Source: Escherichia coli
Lineage (GTDB): Bacteria; Pseudomonadota; Gammaproteobacteria; Enterobacterales; Enterobacteriaceae
NCBI RefSeq assembly: GCF_024502345.1
Contig: NZ_JALDNN010000001.1
Reading direction: 5' to 3' (one strand)
DNA: 64,000 nt
Under the pieces are notes generated by a model. The model saw nothing but the letters and a program-made list of their open reading frames with translations. It was not told the DNA's origin and did not search any database. The position numbers were made by a program, and so were the translations under genes. Of the stretch, positions 7,319-39,881 are shown one piece after another (within the stretch, counting starts at the first letter, position 1; the number at the start of each line of letters is the position of its first letter).

Positions 7319-9013
7319 ATGCGCCTCAATATACCGCTGATAGCGGTTCGCCTTCAGGTAACACAAATCCACCAGCACCAGTCCGTCGACGCAGTCGTTA
7401 AACGCCGGGTCGCTGCCAAAATCAATAAACTGCACGCCGCCGGGTTCACACAGCTCGGAATACTGCTTGTAGAGCGGCGGAATGCCGCAGCCCAGATTGC
7501 CGAGCAGGGATTTCAGCTTTGTCAGGTCATCCACGTAATCCACGCCGCCAAACTGCGCGAGCACGTCCGGCAGCGATGCGGGATACGGCTGACGTGACGC
7601 GGCCAGCGGATGCGTTGCCGGGAACCACAGGCGGTAAAAGGCCACCAGCAGATCCCGTGCGGCAGGCGGTAAGCCACCGGAAATGGAGACCGGGCCAAAC
7701 AGGTAGCGGTAGTTCGGATAACGCGCCAGGTAGGCTCCAATGCCGGACCATAAATAGTCCAGGCCGCGGCGTCCCCAGTAGCGCGGCTGAATAAAGCTGC
7801 GCCCCAGCTCAATGCCGTGCTCCAGTACGTCCTGCATTTTGTCGTCGTAGTGGAACAGGCTATAGCTGTACAACCCCTCAACGCCGCGCTTTTCGATCTG
7901 CATGGCCGTCGGCATAAAGCGATACGCCCCGACGATCTCCAGATCGTCCTCATCCCACAGGATCAGGTGCAGATAATCATCGTCGTAGCTGTCGGTGTCC
8001 CGACGTTTGCCGCTCCCTTCCTCGACCGCGCGAAAGGCAATCTCGCGCAGGCGGCCCAGCTCGCGCAGCAGCGGGGCGTCTTCCTGCCCGTTGCGCTGCC
8101 AAAGATAGATGGTTTTACCGTCGCTGGTATTGCCCAGACATTCGGCCTGCGCCAGCGCGCGTTTCAGGGTGGCGCGGTCTTCCGGGCGGGCAATGGCGCA
8201 CTGGGTTTTAAAGACGCCAGGCAATCCCTTGCCAAGACGCATCACGTGCTGACGGCACTGTTCGGCCATCTCACGCGACGAAAGGCTGGCGCTGTGCCAG
8301 TGATGCCAGGCAATCTGCTGGCCGATCTTAATCGGCAGCTGTCTGTGGCGGCGGCGGAACATCTGCTGCATGAGTAACAGCATTGACAGCGTCGGGGAGA
8401 CCAGCGTGCTGGCATAGAAGAGCAGGCTGTTATGCGCCTGAATATGCACCGGCAGCAGCGGGGCGCGCAGCTTGCTGGCGAGTTTGATAAAGCCAGAGTG
8501 CCACTTTTTGTCGCGAATGCCTTTGCGCGTGGGGCGGGAAACTTCTCCGGCCGGGAAGAAGATCAGCACGCCCGCGTTTTGCAGATGCTGTTCCATCTGC
8601 ACCAGGGACGATTTCGCTGTCCTGCCGCCCATATTATCCACCGGAATAAACAGCGAGCTGAGGGGCTCAAGGTGGGTCAGCATCCGGTTGGTCACGACTT
8701 TAACATCGCGCCTCACGCGGGAAACGGCGTACATCAGCGCCAGGCCGTCCAGCGTACCCGTCGGGTGGTTGGCAATAATGACCAGCGGGCCATGTTCGGG
8801 GATTTGTTCAAGATCGCGGGCGGAAACGGTGCAGAGAATATCAAGGTGTTCCAGAACTTGCTCCACCATATCCAGTCCTTTCAGGTGGCGGTGTGCTGCG
8901 GCAAATTGCTGAAATTCGTCTTCGTAAAACAGTCTTTTTAACAGACTTTTTTGCCAGGGTGCAGGCCTCGCCTGAGGCCAAAGATCGTCGAGAACGCTAT
9001 CGAGGCTAAACAT
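7289..9013 (-). CDS. bifunctional acyltransferase (PlsC-like HX4D domain + GNAT/OlsB-like domain), 'hemolysin-like'
   Basis: 574-aa ORF; NHPTGTLD matches the H(X)4D motif of lysophospholipid acyltransferases. Functional assignment is from motif and architecture only. Confidence 0.55.
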   Translation of the reverse strand: MFSLDSVLDDLWPQARPAPWQKSLLKRLFYEDEFQQFAAAHRHLKGLDMVEQVLEHLDILCTVSARDLEQIPEHGPLVIIANHPTGTLDGLALMYAVSRVRRDVKVVTNRMLTHLEPLSSLFIPVDNMGGRTAKSSLVQMEQHLQNAGVLIFFPAGEVSRPTRKGIRDKKWHSGFIKLASKLRAPLLPVHIQAHNSLLFYASTLVSPTLSMLLLMQQMFRRRHRQLPIKIGQQIAWHHWHSASLSSREMAEQCRQHVMRLGKGLPGVFKTQCAIARPEDRATLKRALAQAECLGNTSDGKTIYLWQRNGQEDAPLLRELGRLREIAFRAVEEGSGKRRDTDSYDDDYLHLILWDEDDLEIVGAYRFMPTAMQIEKRGVEGLYSYSLFHYDDKMQDVLEHGIELGRSFIQPRYWGRRGLDYLWSGIGAYLARYPNYRYLFGPVSISGGLPPAARDLLVAFYRLWFPATHPLAASRQPYPASLPDVLAQFGGVDYVDDLTKLKSLLGNLGCGIPPLYKQYSELCEPGGVQFIDFGSDPAFNDCVDGLVLVDLCYLKANRYQRYIEAHLIPSPQPSP

Positions 9014-21127: not shown

Positions 21128-24100
21128 CTAGAGGTGCCCTCCAACCCCTTTAAATTTTTCGATAAACGCCCCAATTTTCTGGAATACGGTCTGCTTTTTC
21201 GTTTTGTACTGAGGATTCAGCGGACTGAGCTTTGGTAGCGTCTCATTTAGCTCAGTGCCATTTTCGGTAGCATACTCCCGTTTGAGTGATGTGCGGATAT
21301 AGCGCCTTGCAGCCTCTTCATTGAGGTTTTCTTCCTTAATCAACGCCTCTGCTTCCCGTTGCTGTTCACGCTGAGCATAGGTAAAGAATGCATCAATGAT
21401 ACTGGCCTTGTCCGGCATGTCATCAAGGTTAGTTTGCTGAATAAAGTCAACAATCAGACCTTCTTTGGCACGGTTGCCCAGACTTGAGCGGATTAAGCGT
21501 CTGACCTCTTCAGTCAGGGCTTCTTTACCTTTTTTCTCTCTGTTGTGGTCGAAAATCAGGCCAAGGATGTAATCCAGGTTAATTTCCTGCGACTTCAGCA
21601 GGTCAATTTCAAACACCACGTCATCCCAGTCTGTGGTTGATTTATCCCTGTCGTTTGATGCTTTTTCGCGTCGCTGCCAGTCCCGGATATCATTGTATGC
21701 TGAGCGATAGTCCTGAACTTTACGTTCTGCCGGGAGACGAATGGTTTGTAATTCAGCAAATTTTTCATCATCCACATAGTGCTCTGCTTTAAAGGTTTCT
21801 ACCGCTTCCGGGTCACTAATATCAACCTTCTGCAGGGCTTTCAGCGTGGCAAATTCATCATAGTTTTGCAGGATGTTTTCTGCCCGCAGATATTCACCAA
21901 ACAGTTTGACGAAGGCTTTTTTCTCTTTTTCACTGTCGATACTGGCAGGGTCAGGGAAGCGCTGCTCCAGCTCCGAAACAACAGCCATAAAACCTCGTTT
22001 AGCCTCACCGGTTGCCGCATCGGTAAAGCCCTGCATGTACTCTTCGTAGCTTTTTTCCAGCACCACATTCTTGGTGTTTTTGTCGCCAAAAAGTGTGATG
22101 GCATCAATGGTCGGACGCTCCAGGTCCCTGAAAGTCACGATATTGCCGAAGGTTTTGGTTGCATCATAGATACGGTTGGTGCGTGAGAATGCCTGCATCA
22201 GACCGTGATAACGCAGGTTTTTGTCAACGAACAGAGTATTGAGCGTCGGGGCATCAAAGCCGGTTAAGAACATTCCCACCACGATGAGAAGGTCGATATC
22301 CTGATTTTTCACTCGTTGAGCTAAATCGCGGTAGTAGTTCTGGAAGCCGTTACTGTCGGTACTGAAATTGGTTTTAAAGTGGTTGTTATAGTCATCAATG
22401 GCTGAATCCAGGAATTCCTTTGCGCTGCTGTTCATTGCGCTGGTATCAAAGCTTTCGTCAGTAATATCACCAATGGCGCTTTGCTCTTCATTAGCAGCAA
22501 AAGAGAAGATGGTTGCCACACGAAGACGTTTATAGCTGCCAGATTTCTTCTCAGCTTCTTCCTGTAGCATTTTAAATGTCGTGTAATAAGCTTTTGCCGC
22601 GTCCACGCTGCTCACTGCTAACATGGCATTGAAGCCTTTTGCTCCCGGGAAGGTACGATGCGTTTTCTGGCGGAAGTTATTGAGAATGTATTGCGTTATT
22701 TCCTGGATACGCAGTGGGTGCAGAAAGGCCTGCTGGTTTTCAGCCGCGCTGAGTTTTTTCTCGTCTGTTTCCGTTTCAAGGGACTTAAACTGTGGGCGGA
22801 CATCGTTATAGTCCACCTTAAACTTCAGCACTTTTTCATCACGAATCGCATCAGTAATTACGTAAGAATGTAATTCACGCCCGAAGACGCTGGCGGTGGT
22901 TTCTGCCCCCAGTGCATTTTCCGGGAAAATAGGCGTACCGGTAAAACCAAACTGATAAAAGCGTCTGAATTTCTTTTTGAGGTTTTTCTGGGCCTCACCA
23001 AACTGGCTGCGGTGACACTCATCAAAGATAAACACCACCTGCTGCTGATAGACGGGCAGGTCAGCTTCGGCTTTCATCAGGTTATTGAGTTTCTGAATGG
23101 TTGTGACGATAATTTTGTTATCGTCCTTATCCAGGTTTCTTCTGAGGCCAGCTGTATTATCCGAACCATTCACACTGTCCGGAGAGAAGCGCTGATACTC
23201 CTTCATGGTCTGGTAATCGAGGTCTTTCCTGTCGACCACGAAGAAGACTTTATCAATAAAGTCCAGCTCGGTTGCCAGTCGTGCGGCCTTAAAACTGGTC
23301 AGGGTTTTTCCTGACCCTGTGGTATGCCAGATAAACCCGCCGCTTTCGGGTTTTGACCAGTTCTTCGCTTTAAAAGAGCTGTTGATTTTCCAGAGAATGC
23401 GCTCAGTGGCCGCTATCTGATAGGGACGCATGACCAGCAGTGTCTGGCTGCTGTCAAACACGCTGTAATTAAACAGAACATTCAGCAGGGTATGCTTCTG
23501 GAAGAAAGTGGCGGTAAAGTCCTTCAGGTCCTTTATCAGGGTGTTATCCGATTTCGCCCAGTTCATGGTGAAATCAAAGCTGTTTTTATCCCGCTTAGTG
23601 GTACTGGCAAAGTACCGGGTATCAGTCCCGTTGGAAATCACGAAGAGTTGCAGGTATTTAAACAGGGAGTTATCGCTGTTAAAGCTTTCCTTGCTGTAAC
23701 GGTGTATCTGGTTAAAGGCTTCACGAATCGCCACGCCGCGCTTTTTGAGTTCGATTTGCACCAGTGGCAGGCCGTTGACCAGAATGGTGACGTCATAACG
23801 GTTAGCGTGTGAGCCGGTCTGCTCAAACTGCTGAATGACCTGCACCTTATTGCGCAGCAGGTTCTTTTTATCTATCAGATAGATGTTTTCCAGACGACCA
23901 TCATCAAACGTAAAATCACAGATATAGTCGATATGGATTTTACGGGTTTTGTCCAGGCTGCTGTCACTGGGGCTGTCCAGATACTGCTCTGCGAAGCGCC
24001 GCCATTCACTTTCGTTAAACTCCACACCATTAAGACGCTGAAGCTGGTCCCGCACATTCGCCAGCATCGCAGTCGGTGACTTAACGGAGATAAACTCATA

Positions 24101-24244
24101 CCCCTGATTAAGAAGGTCCTGAATCAGCTCCCGCTCAAGGTCCAATTCGCTCTGGTAGCTGTCACCGGTATCCATAACTTTTGTGTATTTATCAAGGACG
24201 ATAAAGTTATTGGATTCAGCAATGGTGTGTGTCTGTTGTGTCAT
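21128..24244 (-). CDS. hsdR: type I restriction enzyme R subunit (HsdR), type IC-like size
   Basis: 1038 aa; Walker [18 protein letters not shown]-box helicase motifs (FDECHRSQ), N-terminal nuclease region; RBS present. Confidence 0.9.
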
Positions 24245-24360
24245 GGAGCATCCTGTGCGTCATCTGGCAAAGTCCGGAAGGGTATCAGAAGCATCTTCCG
24301 GCATTCATAAAACCTGATACCGGACGGGTGAGAACAAACCCTGCCGGTATCAATGGTCCG

Positions 24361-25569
24361 TCAGTTGCTAGTTGTTTCGTGCTTCGGGAAGCTGAACAAC
24401 AAGTCGCGATAGTACTCGTACTGCTTCTGGCGTAGTTCTATTTCACGGGGTAAGCCTTCGGTGATAGAGCTTGTTAATGTGTCGAATTTATCGAGTATGG
24501 TGACAATCCTAACTTGCTCTGACTTTGAAGGGATTGGTAGTAAAAGGTCCTCCATTTGTTTTTTGGATACGGCAGGAATACCTCCTTTCTGCTGAATACC
24601 CGTTAATTTGGTCTCGGATTGTTTCAGATAGTAATAGACATACATCCAATGCAACTGTTCAGTGCTTCTAACAGAGATGGAATAGCAACTATTGCCTGCC
24701 CAGTAAGGAGTGGAACTCTTATTTACAAATCCTGCATTTGCTCCACGCGCACTCACAATAATCTTATCGCCATCATTGTTGAAGTCTTCGTAGTAACCTG
24801 TAGGAGTCCGCCCTCCGTTGTAGACCGGATAATCTGCGTCAGGATTCTGCTTGTCCTTACGGACAAACGCACCAATTGTAATTATTGCTACTTCCCCCAG
24901 ACTCTTCCACTCAACACTCCCCCCCTCAAAACTCAGCAATTGGTTACGATAGTAATTGTACTGCTTTTTACGCATGGTAAGCTCAGCTGTAAGCTCAGCT
25001 GTAAGAGCAGTAAATTTATCCAGAATTCGGACGATTTCAGACTGGATGGTCAGAGACTTTTCAGGATTTTCCGGGCAAGGAATGGGGGCTTTATATGCTG
25101 AAATCATTTGAAGATTCAGCCCACCACGCCCGCTGTTCCCAGATGATATCTGACGTAGATTATCATACTGGGTTTCCAAAAAGTGGAAAATATAATCTGA
25201 ATTGATCTTCCGCTCATCAAATGTAATGGCTGCAAGTGATTGATTGGTGGTTAATTTAATGCGGGTTCTTGCTACTTTACCACGAGTTTTACCCTGACCT
25301 GCTAATGCCATAACAATGGAATTTTCAGGAACAAATTTAGCACTTGAGTTATTTAATCCATCCTCAGTAATGAATGTCTCAGTTTCTTTGATGGTTTTTA
25401 AATTTACTTCACCTGAACTCATCCAGGGGATAGTTCCATGCTCCCAATATTCTGTTTTTTTAGTATCAGGGGTGCCACCAGAATAAATTTTTTTTGCAAC
25501 CTTACCGAGAGGGAACCACTCAACCTCAATCCCCTCCAGCAGTTTTTCCAGATAATTTAGCTTACTCAT
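24361..25569 (-). CDS. hsdS: type I restriction-modification specificity subunit (HsdS)
   Basis: 402 aa with two target-recognition domains separated by a central conserved region containing TAELTAEL; start overlaps the hsdM stop (ATGA). Confidence 0.85.
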
Positions 25570-27122
25570 GCCTGCGCCTCGTAGCCTTCAATTTCTGCCA
25601 CAATCGCATCAATGTCTTTGCGTAACTGGTCGATTTTGCTGACCGTGGTTTTAAGCTCAACATTCAGTTCGGTGATATCGACGATTTCACGGGTATCTTT
25701 TGCTTCGACGTAGCTACTGACAGACAGATTGTAGTCATTACCAGCAACAGTCTCTAATGGCACCGTTTTCGCCAGATGGTCAGTATCTGCCTTACTGTTG
25801 AACACATCCATAATCTGCTTAATATGACCATCAGTCAGGATATTGTTATTGGTTTCTTTCTTAAACAACCCGCTGGCGTCAATAAACTGAACGCGGGTAT
25901 CTGTTTTGTGCTTGGACAACACTAGTATGTTAACGGCAATGGTGGTGCCGAAGAACAGATTTGGTGCCAGAGAAATCACCGTTTCAACATAGTTGTTGTC
26001 GACCAGGTACTGGCGGATTTTCTGCTCTGCTCCGCCACGGTAGAAAATACCGGGGAAGCAAACTATTGCTGCACGCCCTTTAGCTGACAGGTAGTTTAGT
26101 GCATGTAGCACAAACGCAAAGTCAGCTTTTGATTTCGGGGCCAGTACGCCAGCAGGAGCAAAGCGCTCATCGTTAATCAGGGTCGGATCATCACTACCAA
26201 TCCACTTAACCGAGTACGGTGGGTTAGAAACAATCGCATCGAACGGTTTTTCATCGCCAAAGTGAGGCTCAGTCAGGGTATTCCCCAACCTGATATCAAA
26301 CTTATCGTAGTTGATGTTGTGCAGGAACATATTCATACGCGCCAGGTTAAACGTCGTATGATTTATCTCTTGTCCGAAAAAACCTTCTTCAATGATATGA
26401 TTATCAAAGTGCTTCTTCGCCTGAAGCAGCAGTGAGCCAGAGCCTGCGGCAGGGTCATAGATTTTGTTGACGTGAGTCTGACCATGCATCGCAAGCTGAG
26501 CAATCAGCTTAGAGACGTGCTGTGGTGTGAAGAACTCCCCGCCAGACTTACCGGCATTCGCCGCATAGTTTGAAATCAGGAACTCGTAGGCATCACCGAA
26601 AAGGTCAATCTGGTGCTCATTAAAATCCCCGAGCTTTAGCCCCTCAACGCCTTTCAGAACGGCAGCGAGGCGGCTGTTTTTGTCTTTGACGGTGTTACCC
26701 AGTCGATTGCTGGTCGTATCGAAATCGGCAAACAGACCTTTGATGTCGGCCTCAGACGGATAGCCGTAGGCAGAGCTTTCAATAGCGACGAAGATACTGT
26801 TTAAATCAGCATTCAGCCTGTCGTTGGTGTTCGCTTTAGCGGCAACGTTGCAGAACAGCTGGCTCGGATAGATGAAATAGCCTTTAGTCCTGATGGCATC
26901 ATCTTTGATGTCATCGGTAATGATGCTGTCATCAAGTGCTGCATAATGTATGCTCTCATCCCCTGCTTCCATGTAGCTGGAAAAATTCTCACTGATGAAG
27001 CGGTAGAAAAGGGCACCGAGTACATACTGTTTAAAATCCCATCCATCTACTGAGCCCCTGACATCATTGGCAATGGCCCAGATTTGACGGTGTAGTTCTG
27101 CACGTTGTTGAAGACTGGTCAT
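25566..27122 (-). CDS. hsdM: type I restriction-modification N6-adenine DNA methyltransferase (HsdM)
   Basis: 518 aa; catalytic NPPY motif ([10 protein letters not shown]) and AdoMet-binding motif. Confidence 0.9.
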
Positions 27123-27710
27123 TTTTATCCTGTTATCGATTCTTGGTTTCGGCTATTGCTGCGATTTTATCGCAATTTTACTTCTTTGACAGGTTTGAGT
27201 GATGCCTGATAGCCTCCCCAATGAAGGTTAAAATGGTTAATGAAATGTACAGAGAATCAATCGGATATGCTGTTTCGATTTCTGGAGCATCATTAGCGGT
27301 GTTTAGGGGCAGTTCATTACATTTCTGACCTTGTATAGATATGCCGTGATGAAATAAACGTTCACAGCCATCATCTGATCGGTGTGCAACAAAGGCGTCA
27401 TTCATTAAATACGCAGAGAGCCTGACTTATTGCGTCAACGGGTGAGTTACAATGTTGAATCTGGTAACGCCAAAACTGTGTAATTATCTACGCTAAATCA
27501 TTTCTGGTTAGCGTGACCGACGCCGGCGGTCTTAAGATGTACAATTCTTACTGTCTCCGAATGAATTTTATTTATTCAAACAGACTTGGGTGATATTATT
27601 ATCAAGTGAAAATGCCTGTTACCTACCTTGATGATATATACAGTGTTTTTACAGATGAATTTATATGTTTGTAATCAATGCGTGAGTTTGATGTTTTTAA
27701 GGTTAGTTAA

Positions 27711-28031
27711 ATGAAACAGCTATTGGATTTTATAATTGGAAGTTGTGTGGATAACAGAACCAAATTTCAGTTGCTTGCAGTTTGTTATCCAAAATGTAAG
27801 GATGATGAAGTGATGTTGATTTTGCGCTGGAGGGTAGCTGATTTGTATGCGCATGAACTGGAAGTTCAGAATTATCTTTTTAGAGAGCTGGAAGGTATCA
27901 TAGAGAAAATCACGGGCCTGCCTGAAACCTATTTTGTATCAAGCTATAAATCACTATTGACCGATGATTTTAGAGAACTCACAGCAGCGGGGGTTGATGT
28001 TTGTAAGTTTATTATGGAAAACAAAGGTTAG
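27711..28031 (+). CDS. hypothetical protein (106 aa), AT-rich orphan
   Basis: ORF in a low-GC segment, opposite orientation to its neighbours; no recognisable motif. Confidence 0.3.
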   Translation: MKQLLDFIIGSCVDNRTKFQLLAVCYPKCKDDEVMLILRWRVADLYAHELEVQNYLFRELEGIIEKITGLPETYFVSSYKSLLTDDFRELTAAGVDVCKFIMENKG

Positions 28032-28146
28032 TTGGATAAGAACCAACACATTTTCAGGTTCTGTTCTGGCTGAGGAACCTGAATATTCAATCAATGTGTT
28101 AGTTCTATTTTTGATGGTTAGATTTAAATGTGATTCTTTTGCGGTG

Positions 28147-28482
28147 TTATACTGCTGTTATGCATCTAAAAAGCTGACGGCTTTGTTTATGTTTTATGTT
28201 CGGATAGATTCTCATCGCAGCTGCACAGAGAGGTGAAACCTGCCTTGCTATATTTTTACCAAAGTTAACAAGAAGACCATGCTTGATCTTTTCACTATTC
28301 GTTCTGACTTTGATGACAAAGCTGAACTGATATACGATTACCTCAATGAGGTCATTGCCAAATGTTATACTGGCAGCGTTGTTTATTTCATGTTCATAAT
28401 TCCTCAGGTCAGTGTTAAGTCTTGCTGTTGCATCTACAAGTGCGTATTCTTTATCGATAATCATAACTTTCTCACTTATCAT
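28147..28482 (-). CDS. hypothetical protein (up to 111 aa), AT-rich orphan
   Basis: ORF 40 bp downstream of the HTH-WYL regulator on the same strand; start uncertain. Confidence 0.3.
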   Translation of the reverse strand: MISEKVMIIDKEYALVDATARLNTDLRNYEHEINNAASITFGNDLIEVIVYQFSFVIKVRTNSEKIKHGLLVNFGKNIARQVSPLCAAAMRIYPNIKHKQSRQLFRCITAV

Positions 28483-28522
28483 GTTAATGTGATTTAATCA
28501 TCACTAATAATATGTTGTGATT

Positions 28523-29236
28523 TTAATTGCGATTATTCGGTTGTTTTGCCCCGTAATGCATTATCTGATGAATAATGTTCATGTGGGGTAAGGCTTCCAT
28601 AAAGTCAGACTGTTCAATCAGCGAAATGAGTGTGTTATCGATCTCAAACGTTGTATCCGGTAATACCTCAACCAGCCTGATTCGGGACAGGGAAATAACG
28701 AACACGCCCGATGACGTACATCCGGCAAGAAACCACTCCGCATGGCTGCAAAGCAGACGGTAGGGATGAACGGTATGGCTGACGTTTTCGTCGGTTCTGA
28801 TACGCACCTGGGTCTGGTTAAGTATGGCGAGCGTCAGTCTGCTGAAATCACCGAAAAGGGTGGGTTTCTGGCGCGGCTCCGGTAGCATAATCCTGTATGG
28901 CGAGGGACGTTCCCCGTCAAGCATCAGGCTCAGTAGTTTGGCATCCATCGCGGGTAACAGACGGTCAAGATGCAGCAACCTCGCCAGTATCTTCATATCC
29001 CGTTCCGTGCGGCGACGAAAGTAATGTGAGGCAAGCTGATACACGCCGTTGCTCTGTTCAATATCAAGGTAGGTCAGACGGACGTTGAAATCCCGTCGCA
29101 GCGTTCGCGTCGTCACTCCAAATTCTTCTGCCAGCGTCCCGATATGCAGCTTTTCACCCTGAAACAAACGGCTCAGGATGATGGAAAGGCGGGTTGCCAG
29201 TCTGTCATGTTCGTTTTCTTGTGTTATCAGCGTCAT
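28523..29236 (-). CDS. HTH-WYL domain transcriptional regulator
   Basis: N-terminal HTH LAEEFGVTTRTLRRDF; central WYL-type segment HPYRLLCSHAEWFLAGCTSSGVFVISLSRIRLVEV. Confidence 0.7.
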   Translation of the reverse strand: MTLITQENEHDRLATRLSIILSRLFQGEKLHIGTLAEEFGVTTRTLRRDFNVRLTYLDIEQSNGVYQLASHYFRRRTERDMKILARLLHLDRLLPAMDAKLLSLMLDGERPSPYRIMLPEPRQKPTLFGDFSRLTLAILNQTQVRIRTDENVSHTVHPYRLLCSHAEWFLAGCTSSGVFVISLSRIRLVEVLPDTTFEIDNTLISLIEQSDFMEALPHMNIIHQIMHYGAKQPNNRN

Positions 29237-29338
29237 ACATCATTTCCGAATTTAGCCGGGAAATGATGCCAGCAGTAGCGGACAGGATTTGTCCGCCCTC
29301 TGAAGTTTTTTAAAGTCTGAATACCTTAAATGTAAGTG

Positions 29339-30088
29339 CTAAACGTCAGTATTCTCAGGTGAATAAAGATGCTTCTGGCGCATGTAGGCAATAAAAATGC
29401 AGGATGGTAGCGTCACCCGGTATGCGGGACCGGCTAAATCAATCAGCAGCCAGAGAGAACTGAGCACCCAGCCCACGGGACCGGCAAAAGCGCCCATGGT
29501 ACGCGTCAGCATGGCATTTCCTGCAACGGTCAGCCCTCTGCCTAACAGGGCTTTCGCCACACCATTTGTGACAACAAGTGCCATCTGATAGGCCGCAAAC
29601 CCGGATGTTTTAATCCCCGCCTGGATTGCCATGGTCAGCAGCTCCGGCGTGGGATTGCTGTAGCCTGTCTGCAATTCTTCCGCCACGGTCTTTAGCTGAG
29701 CGGGTGTCATCTTCTCAAGGCTTTTCTCCAGGATCTTCATCAGCAGATTCATTTCAATGGTTTCAACACTGGATTTGCTGTTGTAGTTCACCTTCATTTT
29801 ATCGCAGGCATCGGTAAGAATTTCCCGGTACAGCACCCCTTTACCCCAGCGGAGCAGCGTGGCAAAGCTGTTCGCCCCAAACGTCTGAACTTCGGCGGCA
29901 ATGGCATCCCAGTAGCGCGGGTGGTTGGGCTTGTGTTTTTTATACTGAGGATCATAGGTCAGCGTTTCCGTGATGCGTGCCAGTCCGTCTTTCGGATCGC
30001 AGATAAGCACAGAAACCAGTAAATCCAGATCGTCACGATGACAGTGGCGCAGAAACTCAAGGTCGGGGTCGTGTCGGTAGGTAGCCAT
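29339..30088 (-). CDS. hypothetical protein (249 aa) with C-terminal Gly-rich hydrophobic segment
   Basis: ...GAFAGPVGWVLSSLWLLIDLAGPAYRVTLPSC...; possibly YaaW/UPF0174-like (from memory, unverified). Confidence 0.5.
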   Translation of the reverse strand: MATYRHDPDLEFLRHCHRDDLDLLVSVLICDPKDGLARITETLTYDPQYKKHKPNHPRYWDAIAAEVQTFGANSFATLLRWGKGVLYREILTDACDKMKVNYNSKSSVETIEMNLLMKILEKSLEKMTPAQLKTVAEELQTGYSNPTPELLTMAIQAGIKTSGFAAYQMALVVTNGVAKALLGRGLTVAGNAMLTRTMGAFAGPVGWVLSSLWLLIDLAGPAYRVTLPSCIFIAYMRQKHLYSPENTDV

Positions 30089-30231
30089 ATTTCACCTCAT
30101 TGCAGATATTGGACCTGACAGTTTAAGGAAGCACCCGGACAGGGTTTGTCCGCCTGAAAAACAAAAAAGTAAAAAAAAACCTACCCGAAAGCAGGTTTCT
30201 GTTCACCGGATGGAGGTATAACGCGTCGGGA

Positions 30232-30618
30232 TTACTTTCCGCGCCATTCCTTTTCCACTTTATCCGCAAAGGCATCGCACTGCCGGGCATATTCCGGGTT
30301 ATACAGAAGCTCCGACTGCGAAAGCTGCATGGCGGTCATGCTGCCGTTACGGGCGTTCGATTCGAGCCAGGTTCTGCCATAGGTTTGGTTCATCACCTGA
30401 AGTACCCTGTTGAATACCGGTCCGTTGAAGCGGGCATTGAGATTAACGCCTTTTACCTGAAGGCCGCTGTCACTGGTCTGGGTCAGGCGGGTGGAGTACA
30501 TCGCGCAGAAGGTCGAATTGGTAATCATCTGAGCGTCAGCCTGCTCGTCGGCGAACGCGCTGTGGCTGAAGGCGGAAAGCAGAATTGCGGCGGTTAACAG
30601 TTTTAAAGTTTTCATCAT
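30232..30618 (-). CDS. secreted/periplasmic hypothetical protein (128 aa)
   Basis: Signal peptide MMKTLKLLTAAILLSAFSHSAFA; two Cys residues in the mature part. Confidence 0.55.
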   Translation of the reverse strand: MMKTLKLLTAAILLSAFSHSAFADEQADAQMITNSTFCAMYSTRLTQTSDSGLQVKGVNLNARFNGPVFNRVLQVMNQTYGRTWLESNARNGSMTAMQLSQSELLYNPEYARQCDAFADKVEKEWRGK

Positions 30619-30692: not shown

Positions 30693-30932
30693 TCAGGGTT
30701 TCAGCGAGGGAGCCAGTCGCCAGCGGTGAGGGCCAGCGGATTCCAGCACAAAGGCCAGTTGAGCGAGGTCCCGTCTTGCTGTGCGGGGAGAGACGTCAAA
30801 CTGCCGGATGATGTAGCGAACAGATATTGTCTGACCGTAAAACAGGGCCATGGTCAGCCGGATAAGCCGTTCTCCCTGTCCGGTGACACGTTGCCTGCAA
30901 CGGCTGGCTTTCATCGTTGCCATACGCGCCAT
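30693..30932 (-). CDS. small HTH protein (79 aa)
   Basis: Motif FDVSPRTARRDLAQL resembles the HTH of DeoR/WYL-type regulators, but the protein has no C-terminal domain; overlaps the upstream gene by 22 bp. Confidence 0.45.
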   Translation of the reverse strand: MARMATMKASRCRQRVTGQGERLIRLTMALFYGQTISVRYIIRQFDVSPRTARRDLAQLAFVLESAGPHRWRLAPSLKP

Positions 30933-32713: not shown

Positions 32714-33204
32714 ATTGATAATATGTTTTCAAATGACTTTTAGTTACATTTTATTTACGTTGTTTGCTTTTTCTGGATTATGCCCTTAAATTTAGTTCTA
32801 ACCTGGCATTAAATCCCGTTTTTTTTAGATTTTTAGAGTTTTATAAAGAAATTAGCATGTGCTGTTTTAACTGAAAATGAGAGAAGGCTTGCGCACAATT
32901 GCTATTGATTTTCTTACTTATTTTCTCAATCACAAAACGCCTTAAATAGTTCAAAAAACAATCAACACCCCATAATCGATATTATTTATGGGGAGAAACG
33001 ACGTTTAAGCCTGAAAGTGGGGGAGTGGCACTTTCAGGAGATTAAGGAGGCAAACAGGCCTCTTTAACGCGTGTTTTTCTCACCAAAATGTCAGAGTCGG
33101 TGATTTGCACTTCAGTATTTCTGCCAATACTATTCGCTCCATGTGCTGGCCAGCATCTAACTCAATACCCTTAATCTGTATTAATTGAGCGAGATGTATG
33201 CATT

Positions 33205-39805: not shown

Positions 39806-39881
39806 TGGTGCCCGGACTCGGAATCGAACCAAGGACACGGGGATTTTCAATCCCCTGCTCTACCGACTGAGCTATCCGGGC
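39806..39881 (-). tRNA. pheV: tRNA-Phe (GAA anticodon)
   Basis: Revcomp reads gcccggatagctcagtcggtagagcaggggattgaaaatccccgtgtccttggttcgattccgagtccgggcacca, a canonical 76-nt tRNA-Phe with CCA end; next to yqgA-speC. Confidence 0.95.

Follow-up and report, generated by a model that had tools for sequence, protein, structure and literature searches.

Proteins with a WYL domain are emerging as general switches in bacterial immunity, and a gene for one of them lies beside restriction genes in Escherichia coli contig NZ_JALDNN010000001.1 (RefSeq assembly GCF_024502345.1). Which genes does this regulator control? We analysed a window of 64,000 nt around it. A sequence-only reading had described the 237-aa product as a helix-turn-helix (HTH) protein of the WYL type, comparable to BrxR and CapW, followed on the same strand by an AT-rich segment with two open reading frames (ORFs) that could form a small regulated cargo module. 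That reading did not include a jukA homologue, which lies upstream of the regulator gene at 29339-30088 on the minus strand. We lean, by a modest degree, towards the view that the WYL protein autoregulates the core unit containing this jukA gene through a palindromic box, and that it controls neither the AT-rich ORFs nor the restriction-modification (RM) cargo. The gene in question is the following.

28523..29236, minus strand: winged HTH (wHTH)-WYL regulator of 237 aa, without a WCX domain; assigned with Pfam, PADLOC, an AlphaFold2 (AF2) model with Foldseek, and our alignment of relatives (A2)

A WYL regulator of the short type

Pfam, PADLOC and the AF2/Foldseek comparison agree on an HTH and a WYL domain at 28523-29236, as the sequence-only reading had it, and the peptide that it quoted (EWFLAGC...SLSRIRLVEV) is present in the translation. 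In Pfam, HTH_DeoR matches residues 16-51 (E 6e-6), HTH_11 matches too, and WYL matches residues 131-190 (E 4.6e-4). The PADLOC WYL model PDLC01457 covers residues 12-229 (E 4e-15). The AF2 model, built on 29 homologues, has a mean predicted local distance difference test score (pLDDT) of 82.5 and comprises an N-terminal winged HTH (helices 5-53 and a beta hairpin at 59-68) and a WYL domain of five strands (142-196). The latter resembles the C-domain of DriD and the Hfq and Sm folds, that is, an Sm-like beta-barrel. PafBC, CapW, BrxR and DriD were the top Foldseek matches among solved structures (E 2e-7 to 1e-4); all are wHTH-WYL regulators, and their identity to the window protein is 14-20%.

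The Pfam check proposed by the sequence-only reading had named both WYL and WCX. WYL was found as described above, whereas WCX (PF25583) was not matched by the 237-aa protein, although it is matched by a relative, P0097. The protein ends 41 residues past the WYL domain, in two helices. Alignment A2 separates the relatives into a short group of about 230-240 aa, which includes the window protein, and a long group of 290-310 aa with about 70 extra C-terminal residues. A conserved C-terminal tail, F[IM]xALPHF, is the signature of the short group and is present in the window protein; the long group is marked by a WCX-type extension (WIP...ILSP). To our knowledge, only the WCX-bearing types BrxR, CapW, DriD and PafBC have been studied. 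Close relatives form only 22 clusters, and an exhaustive HMMER search gave 537 relatives. Since a search of phages gave a single weak match, the WYL gene is not considered a phage gene.

Membership of the BrxR/CapW type was dropped. The WCX domain is missing, the protein has 237 aa against 285-330 aa, and neither BrxR nor CapW was retrieved at E<=1 when the PDB sequences (including 7qfz, 7t8k and 7tb5) were searched by phmmer or by hmmsearch with the A2 profile. The sole find of these PDB searches was the WYL domain of PafBC. Picton et al. counted BrxR homologues at BLASTP E<1e-5; because BrxR and CapW were not retrieved at E<=1, the window protein does not belong to the BrxR family by this published definition. 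BrxR and CapW have the same two N-terminal domains and fold class, being the best PDB matches in Foldseek after PafBC (E ~1e-6), and they are likewise associated with restriction-type defence. The R-boxes of BrxR are inverted repeats with a 5-bp spacer, a geometry equal to that of the candidate operator described below. Conversely, BrxR and CapW are 14-18% identical to the window protein, possess WCX and are encoded at the head of a defence operon, whereas the window gene lies inside an operon, downstream of jukA.

K-12 YfjR (b2634, in the CP4-57 cryptic prophage) aligns with residues 7-223 of the window protein at 36% identity (E 2e-38), and the YfjR proteins of CP4-57 in K-12 and in a variant island are 36-37% identical to it over the whole length. 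YfjR has 233 aa against 237 and shares the arrangement of HTH, WYL and short tail with the ALPHF motif. The core WYL protein of true pipolins is 32% identical. On the strength of these domains and relatives, the 237-aa protein is a real, shortened WYL transcription factor of the YfjR/pipolin-core clade.

A palindromic box and the probable unit that it precedes

The regulator gene is the third of three genes that are each preceded by the same palindrome.

29280..29294: box copy 1, 43 nt before the start codon of the WYL gene; at the same time it is the stem of hairpin 1
30137..30151: box copy 2, exact, 48 nt upstream of the jukA start codon
30664..30678: box copy 3, with one mismatch, 45 nt upstream of the sp128 start codon
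29339..30088, minus strand: homologue of JukA (YaaW/DUF3944) that would open the unit; PADLOC JukA 1.5e-72, residues 3-241
30232..30618, minus strand: 128-aa protein (sp128) with an N-terminal signal peptide, read from the translation; a box before it and a terminator-like site after it (30200-30175)

With up to one mismatch, the 15-bp palindrome GGACA-N5-TGTCC has three sites in the 64 kb, one before each of sp128, jukA and the WYL gene; the second copy surfaced in an alignment of the region upstream of jukA. Edwardsiella keeps all three boxes in spacers that have otherwise diverged. The same threshold gave 13 sites in a further 119 kb, made up of 11 loci that encode distant relatives of the WYL protein. 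Ten of these are within 200 nt upstream of a WYL gene or a jukA-WYL operon, where about 0.07 would be expected by chance (2.96e-5 per position). Eight of the 11 loci (L004, L020, L022, L024, L028, L030, L044 and the pipolin L040) have such an upstream box, and in the distant clades it comes 56-190 nt before the operon begins with its first gene. The K-12 MG1655 locus (L046, 2762000-2772000) contains a single site at this threshold, an exact box (7517-7531, genome 2769516-2769530) in the yfjQ-yfjR spacer, 173 nt upstream of yfjR, and the pipolin L040 has copies 64 and 149 nt upstream of its WYL gene. The consensus in gene orientation is GGACA-yAACC-TGTCC. Because the WYL gene is the sole gene common to the box-bearing loci, we infer that the box is a candidate operator of the WYL protein. 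Pipolin L040 also has an exact box (13165-13179) 65 nt upstream of an unrelated 130-aa pipolin core gene, which suggests a small regulon in pipolins too.

We propose that a dimer of the WYL protein would bind the palindrome that precedes sp128, jukA and the WYL gene itself, and would thereby autoregulate a Juk-type module. A signal of infection or DNA damage, received by the WYL domain, would alter DNA binding; the direction of regulation is part of the proposal. By analogy with CapW, DriD and PafBC, the signal may be a nucleic-acid ligand such as single-stranded DNA (ssDNA). A review from Ishihama's group, based on genomic systematic evolution of ligands by exponential enrichment (gSELEX), describes YfjR as a single-target regulator whose target is its own operon. 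The downstream restriction cargo would probably be outside direct WYL control; at up to one mismatch, the window has no box near hsdM, ORF B (a small plus-strand ORF of the AT-rich segment), the AT-rich segment itself, the integrases or the DUF927 gene.

Several results weigh against this proposal. Two of the distant loci, L025 and L045, have complete upstream sequence and no box at up to one mismatch, and none is found in L043, where the upstream region ends at the contig end. Chromatin immunoprecipitation with exonuclease treatment (ChIP-exo) in K-12 gave no YfjR binding sites under the conditions used. A sigma-70 promoter scan returned counts at chance level, with no convincing promoter beside the boxes. 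The suggested ligand derives from relatives at 14-20% identity. A different protein could be an alternative or competing binder of the box, namely a 79-aa stand-alone HTH protein encoded at 30693-30932 on the minus strand. Its HTH is 37% identical over 27 aa to that of the WYL protein, and its gene overlaps the end of the LRAT gene. Finally, the box could act as an RNA hairpin, since a stable structure forms with it as the stem; only one compensatory change was seen, and this agrees with an operator and an RNA element alike.

The jukA-WYL spacer forms two stable hairpins (z -4.3). Copy 1 of the box is the stem of hairpin 1, and hairpin 2 is the following repeat.

29238..29268, minus strand: perfect 10-nt inverted repeat CATCATTTCC-N11-GGAAATGATG abutting the WYL ATG

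As RNA, hairpin 2 buries the Shine-Dalgarno sequence of the WYL gene. Changes of the G-U type are tolerated in this hairpin, which points to a damping of the regulator's translation; occlusion of the Shine-Dalgarno sequence would form a second layer of control. The repeat was also considered as a reiterated operator and rejected, since its half-site is found nowhere else in the island and the G-U-type changes favour an RNA hairpin. No known RNA family was detected in 26900-30300 at E<=1.

Could all of these palindromes be RNA elements that act in processing, stability or attenuation of a polycistronic transcript, with the WYL protein having its targets elsewhere or not binding DNA in vivo? The good folding of both spacer hairpins, the G-U-compatible changes in hairpin 2, the one compensatory pair in hairpin 1 and the absence of YfjR sites in ChIP-exo are consistent with this. 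However, in the distant clades the box precedes the first gene of the operon by 56-190 nt, a place at which one expects a promoter and not a hairpin between cistrons. The core stem is 5 bp only, and the 5-nt spacer is itself conserved (yAACC), which is needless for a loop. We consider this explanation unlikely.

The extent of the transcription unit depends on two further features downstream.

28147..28464, minus strand: conserved gene for a basic (pI 9.5) protein of 105 aa, immediately following the WYL gene
28039..28106: long hairpin, -27.9 kcal/mol, z -5.6, separating the 105-aa gene from ORF B, which converges on it

The terminator-like site after sp128 (30200-30175) has an 11-bp stem and a T-run, and no terminator was found between jukA, the WYL gene and the 105-aa gene. 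The hairpin at 28039-28106 is a probable bidirectional terminator that ends the jukA-WYL-105aa unit; at the same place after the 105-aa gene, Edwardsiella has a perfect hairpin with a T-rich tail. hsdM keeps its own conserved upstream region of 74 nt. From the positions of these terminators and hairpins and from the separate hsdM upstream region, we read jukA, the WYL gene and the 105-aa gene as one unit and the RM genes as expressed separately. The palindrome TGCGATTTTATCGCA (27160-27174), about 40 nt upstream of hsdM, is kept in Edwardsiella despite a differing spacer and could serve the type I RM operon as a control element of its own.

This layout bears on a BrxR/CapW-like mode of action, in which the WYL protein would repress the downstream same-strand cargo (the 105-aa gene, HEC-05 or the AT-rich ORFs, and hsdMSR) and free it upon infection. 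The WYL gene does head the cargo module and is transcribed towards it, the gaps in canonical islands are short (58 nt from WYL to the 105-aa gene, ~70 nt from there to the DUF262 gene), and BrxR homologues are reported to co-localise with type I and type IV restriction systems. Against this, the AT-rich segment and the surroundings of hsdM and ORF B are free of the box, the 105-aa gene is followed by strong hairpins here and in Edwardsiella alike, and the 74-nt region upstream of hsdM has a palindrome of its own. In true pipolins and YfjR-type islands, moreover, the WYL gene is not adjacent to the cargo or not oriented towards it. As WCX and a sequence match to BrxR or CapW are also absent, we give this mode of action little credence.

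Conserved partners on a pipolin-like island

Autoregulation of a jukA-containing unit raises the question of how constant its members are. The jukA orthologues have the Pfam domains DUF3944 and Ubiq_cyt_C_chap (a Cbp3-like chaperone domain). Juk (jumbo-phage killer) systems, which protect against nucleus-forming jumbo phages with JukA as the sensor, consist of JukA and JukB; the upstream gene here encodes a full-length JukA homologue, and PADLOC found no JukB in the WYL protein, the 105-aa protein or ORF B. The idea that JukB occupies the position of the WYL or the 105-aa gene was dropped on this result. According to the Juk preprint (bioRxiv 10.1101/2022.09.17.508391), WYL genes are the most frequent defence-associated neighbours of jukA, and RM components too rank among the commonest; JukA-GTPase fusions exist, and some JukA proteins protect alone.

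We surveyed the partners of the WYL gene across ten short-group clades, which count as separate representatives at 50% identity and include the window family and the YfjR type. Half of the clades (the window family, P0103, P0108, P0115 and P0111) have jukA as the adjacent upstream gene in the same orientation, 10-102 nt away, and a YfjP-type GTPase is encoded upstream in the other five (P0096, P0110, P0114, P0131 and the YfjR type). The third gene differs among the clades, and the 105-aa gene is restricted to the island family of the window. K-12 yfjR follows this pattern: it has GGACA-N5-TGTCC upstream too and a core position in a tRNA-type island beside defence cargo (abpAB, rnlAB). Its upstream partners are the GTPase YfjP and YfjQ (DUF932) rather than JukA, and ypjK rather than the 105-aa gene is downstream. 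The layout of CP4-57 is alike in that the defence cargo abpAB and rnlAB adjoins the core yfjP-yfjQ-yfjR.

The window locus belongs to an island at a tRNA gene.

39806-39881, minus strand: tRNA-Phe
39806..39830: proximal attachment (att) copy inside tRNA-Phe
20242..20266: distal att copy, a 25-nt exact repeat of the tRNA-Phe 3' end
21128..27122, minus strand: type I RM genes, the distal cargo (hsdM 25566-27122, hsdS 24361-25569, hsdR 21128-24244)

The 25-nt repeat is exact, with 0 chance matches expected, and therefore sets the island limits at 19.6 kb. From the tRNA, the order is an integrase (394 aa), a DUF927 protein (642 aa) and a second integrase (436 aa). Onward on the minus strand come ORFs of 126 and 143 aa, DUF2787, LRAT, the 79-aa HTH protein and the 128-aa secreted protein, followed by JukA, WYL, the 105-aa gene, hsdM-hsdS-hsdR and a beta-flower repeat protein. 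The description of an HTH-WYL factor-like protein on a defence island beside restriction genes was accordingly borne out. Of 5426 complete E. coli genomes, about 113-116 carry the island backbone, which occurs in Enterobacter, Pseudocitrobacter, Kluyvera, Morganella and Edwardsiella as well; the order int-DUF927-int ... sp128-jukA-WYL-105aa is kept in all six genera.

Mateo-Caceres and Redrejo-Rodriguez (PMC11551731) defined the pipolin core as IntSXT, IntP2, DUF2787, WYL and two orphans, and described a bimodular build in which the core is fixed and the defence cargo, frequently type I RM, is exchangeable. Pipolin-like islands without piPolB are mentioned there in passing only. We compared the window island by blastp with L040, a true pipolin locus from E. 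coli 23AR1101. The tRNA-proximal integrase, which is of the IntSXT type, is 46% identical, the second integrase 26%, DUF2787 45%, the two orphans 39% and 53%, and the WYL protein 32% over HTH and WYL. The core gene set is thus similar, as is the bimodular arrangement of core and type I RM cargo. The pipolin WYL protein differs in that it has 308 aa and a C-terminal WCX-like extension and follows piPolB. piPolB is absent from the window island, where DUF927 holds the slot between the integrases as the replication gene, and jukA, LRAT, the small HTH gene and the secreted protein are additions. By gene content and order, the window island is a piPolB-less pipolin-like defence island in which the WYL gene is a fixed core gene.

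Repressors of phage satellites govern switches of excision and replication, and a core WYL protein could be a comparable master regulator that senses a helper phage or DNA damage and controls excision or replication through the integrases or DUF927. In favour of this, the WYL gene is a core gene that is not exchanged in three island families with different cargo (pipolins, the DUF927 island and CP4-57-like islands), and the WYL regulators PafBC and DriD respond to DNA damage. However, no box is found near either integrase, DUF927 or the AT-rich gap at 32714-33204, and all copies in the window flank sp128, jukA and the WYL gene, so that a switch of this kind seems improbable.

Three other observations concern the rest of the island and its surroundings. 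The gap at 32714-33204, the second AT-rich one (GC 0.35), lies between a divergent small-gene array and the 436-aa integrase and is probably the divergent promoter region of the island. The cargo module is closed by a 114-aa protein (20568-20912, minus strand) with six tandem copies of KDDRLRTIATFDGKTL; its relatives are annotated '5-fold beta-flower protein', and other islands have a 388-aa hypothetical protein instead. Because a P4-type integrase (18782-20044, minus strand) is found just beyond the distal att, followed leftwards to ~11486 by insertion sequence (IS) elements and a 1016-aa autotransporter, there looks to be a second island in tandem at the tRNA-Phe site.

The 105-aa gene and the AT-rich segment

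The sequence-only reading had placed the AT-rich segment downstream of the regulator on its strand, with one orphan ORF on the minus and one on the plus strand. This placement is correct for the minus-strand ORF, which is real, with a start at the ATG at 28464 rather than at 28482 (28147-28464, 105 aa, MIIDKEY...); the other, at 27711-28031, is convergent to it. The ATG at 28464 and its Shine-Dalgarno sequence are kept in Edwardsiella, and most homologues start there. We found 75 homologue clusters across Enterobacterales at 50-97% identity, with 22 invariant columns. The median ratio of nonsynonymous to synonymous substitution rates (dN/dS) is 0.23 over 91 pairs, and the gene evolves well ahead of WYL and JukA, with a median dN of 0.08 as against 0.015 and 0.005. 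The 105-aa gene is therefore a real, conserved and fast-evolving core gene. It is apparently co-transcribed with the regulator, as a small regulated module would be, and it is not cargo.

The model of the 105-aa protein (pLDDT 78, predicted template modelling score 0.71) has a ferredoxin-like beta-alpha-beta-beta-alpha fold, closest to IS200/IS605 TnpA. With TnpA and RAYT it has the ferredoxin-like beta-alpha-beta-beta-alpha-beta core in common. An active HUH transposase was nevertheless dropped as an identification, on the missing HUH motif and the missing Pfam match (Y1_Tnp). The strand at 48-54 reads SFVIKVR / FSFIIxVR in 20 of 20 aligned homologues without an HUH motif, and the sole invariant His, H62, is isolated. 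Y1 enzymes have a catalytic Tyr on a C-terminal helix; here an invariant Tyr, Y87, follows helix 62-85 in a region of pLDDT 54-72. HUH Y1 enzymes have 130-165 aa against 105 here, and three solved Y1 structures are 6-11% identical to the protein. It is a long shot that '(JukA or YfjP-type GTPase) + short WYL' is a box-marked sensor-regulator module of pipolins, CP4-57-like islands and window islands with the HUH-less TnpA-like 105-aa protein as its nucleic-acid-handling output, which might, for example, bind a hairpin or ssDNA at the core/cargo junction and promote cargo swaps, the swap junctions falling repeatedly inside the 105-aa gene itself.

The low GC content of 27400-28500 was described correctly, as this is the lowest-GC stretch of the window. 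GC is 0.345-0.372 in 400-nt windows across 27400-28600, and the ten lowest 961-bp windows of the 64 kb all start at 27251-27701 (minimum 0.351; mean over the 64 kb 0.511, sd 0.056). Beyond the 105-aa gene, this DNA comprises the following features.

27197..28157: AT-rich segment of 961 bp, GC 0.375, in the HEC-05/DUF262 slot
27711..28031, plus strand: ORF B, an acidic narrow orphan of 106 aa
27178..27405, minus strand: 75-aa ORF in the AT-rich segment, intact in the Kluyvera copy; a third small ORF besides the two already described

The slot of canonical islands holds a 622-aa DUF262 gene, which is HEC-05 in PADLOC (E 1.9e-230). Judged by alignment to sister islands, almost all of which have HEC-05, the 961-bp segment is a rare local replacement of that gene, whose defence role is known. 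Among complete E. coli genomes, the arrangement of the window is found in strain AREA_C483 only, and Kluyvera-type islands have the segment too, at 92% identity. Down to 28406 the window matches canonical islands at ~100% identity, which then falls to 75%, and the sequences are unalignable below ~28160. This decay indicates a recombination junction inside the 105-aa gene. The AT-rich DNA would thus be made up of a fast-evolving core gene and a segment swapped for HEC-05 by recombination, with one junction inside the 105-aa gene. The suggestion that the AT-rich remainder is regulated cargo did not hold: it is a HEC-05/DUF262 replacement beyond a strong hairpin and has no copy of the candidate operator.

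The term 'hypervariable cargo slot' was found to be partly true only, as HEC-05 and type I RM cargo are common to most islands. The variant islands have the AT-rich segment, run straight into hsdM (Edwardsiella), encode type II RM (Morganella) or are disrupted by IS elements. In Morganella morganii (L009/L010, 10375-12330), oppositely oriented type II RM genes after the 105-aa gene replace HEC-05 and type I RM; they encode a C-protein-like HTH, a 187-aa ORF and a C5 methyltransferase. The Pectobacterium and Kluyvera ascorbata loci (L008 and L039) are degraded remnants and added no information. On plasmids, the 105-aa protein is matched in 257 Klebsiella plasmids, mostly ~110 kb and non-mobilizable. 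The K. pneumoniae IncFIB plasmid that we examined (p3347684I_2, L041, 7041-14183) has a remnant of the 105-aa gene and then HEC-05 and hsdMSR. E. coli conjugative plasmids (pQnrS1_005237, L042) contain a truncated WYL gene, IS1, the 105-aa gene and HEC-05 beside Zorya II. The HEC-05/RM block therefore moves between replicons, which agrees with the cargo exchange described for pipolins.

Conservation separates the two ORFs first described: it is broad for the 105-aa gene, and ORF B is a narrow orphan. There is close to an even chance that ORF B and the 75-aa ORF are not genes and that the 961-bp segment is non-coding filler or debris of the recombination that removed HEC-05. ORF B forms four protein clusters only, all at >=92% identity and always convergent to the 105-aa gene, and it has no match in Pfam, NCBIfam, PADLOC or PHROGs. 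Plasmids gave no match to the AT-rich segment, and the differences in ORF B fall on the three codon positions as 2/7/7, with no third-position bias. On the other side, the Kluyvera copy, at 92% identity, keeps both ORFs intact, with 5.0 and 7.1 mismatches per 100 nt against 10.4-11.5 in the flanking spacers and a dN/dS of 0.33-0.37 on 16 differences each. This is weak evidence that the two ORFs are under constraint, and the coding value of the segment is doubtful. As a rare local replacement of HEC-05, the AT-rich orphan ORFs matter much less than the regulator unit.

The regulator is of a known general kind and comes from a little-studied WCX-less clade that includes K-12 yfjR and the pipolin core WYL. 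The locus yields a prediction for this clade, namely a shared 15-bp operator and autoregulation of a unit that contains JukA or a GTPase. If true, this would account for the reported association of jukA with WYL genes and would assign a function to a K-12 y-gene. It would also suggest that 'hitchhiker' defence islands regulate their core sensor module apart from their exchangeable cargo.

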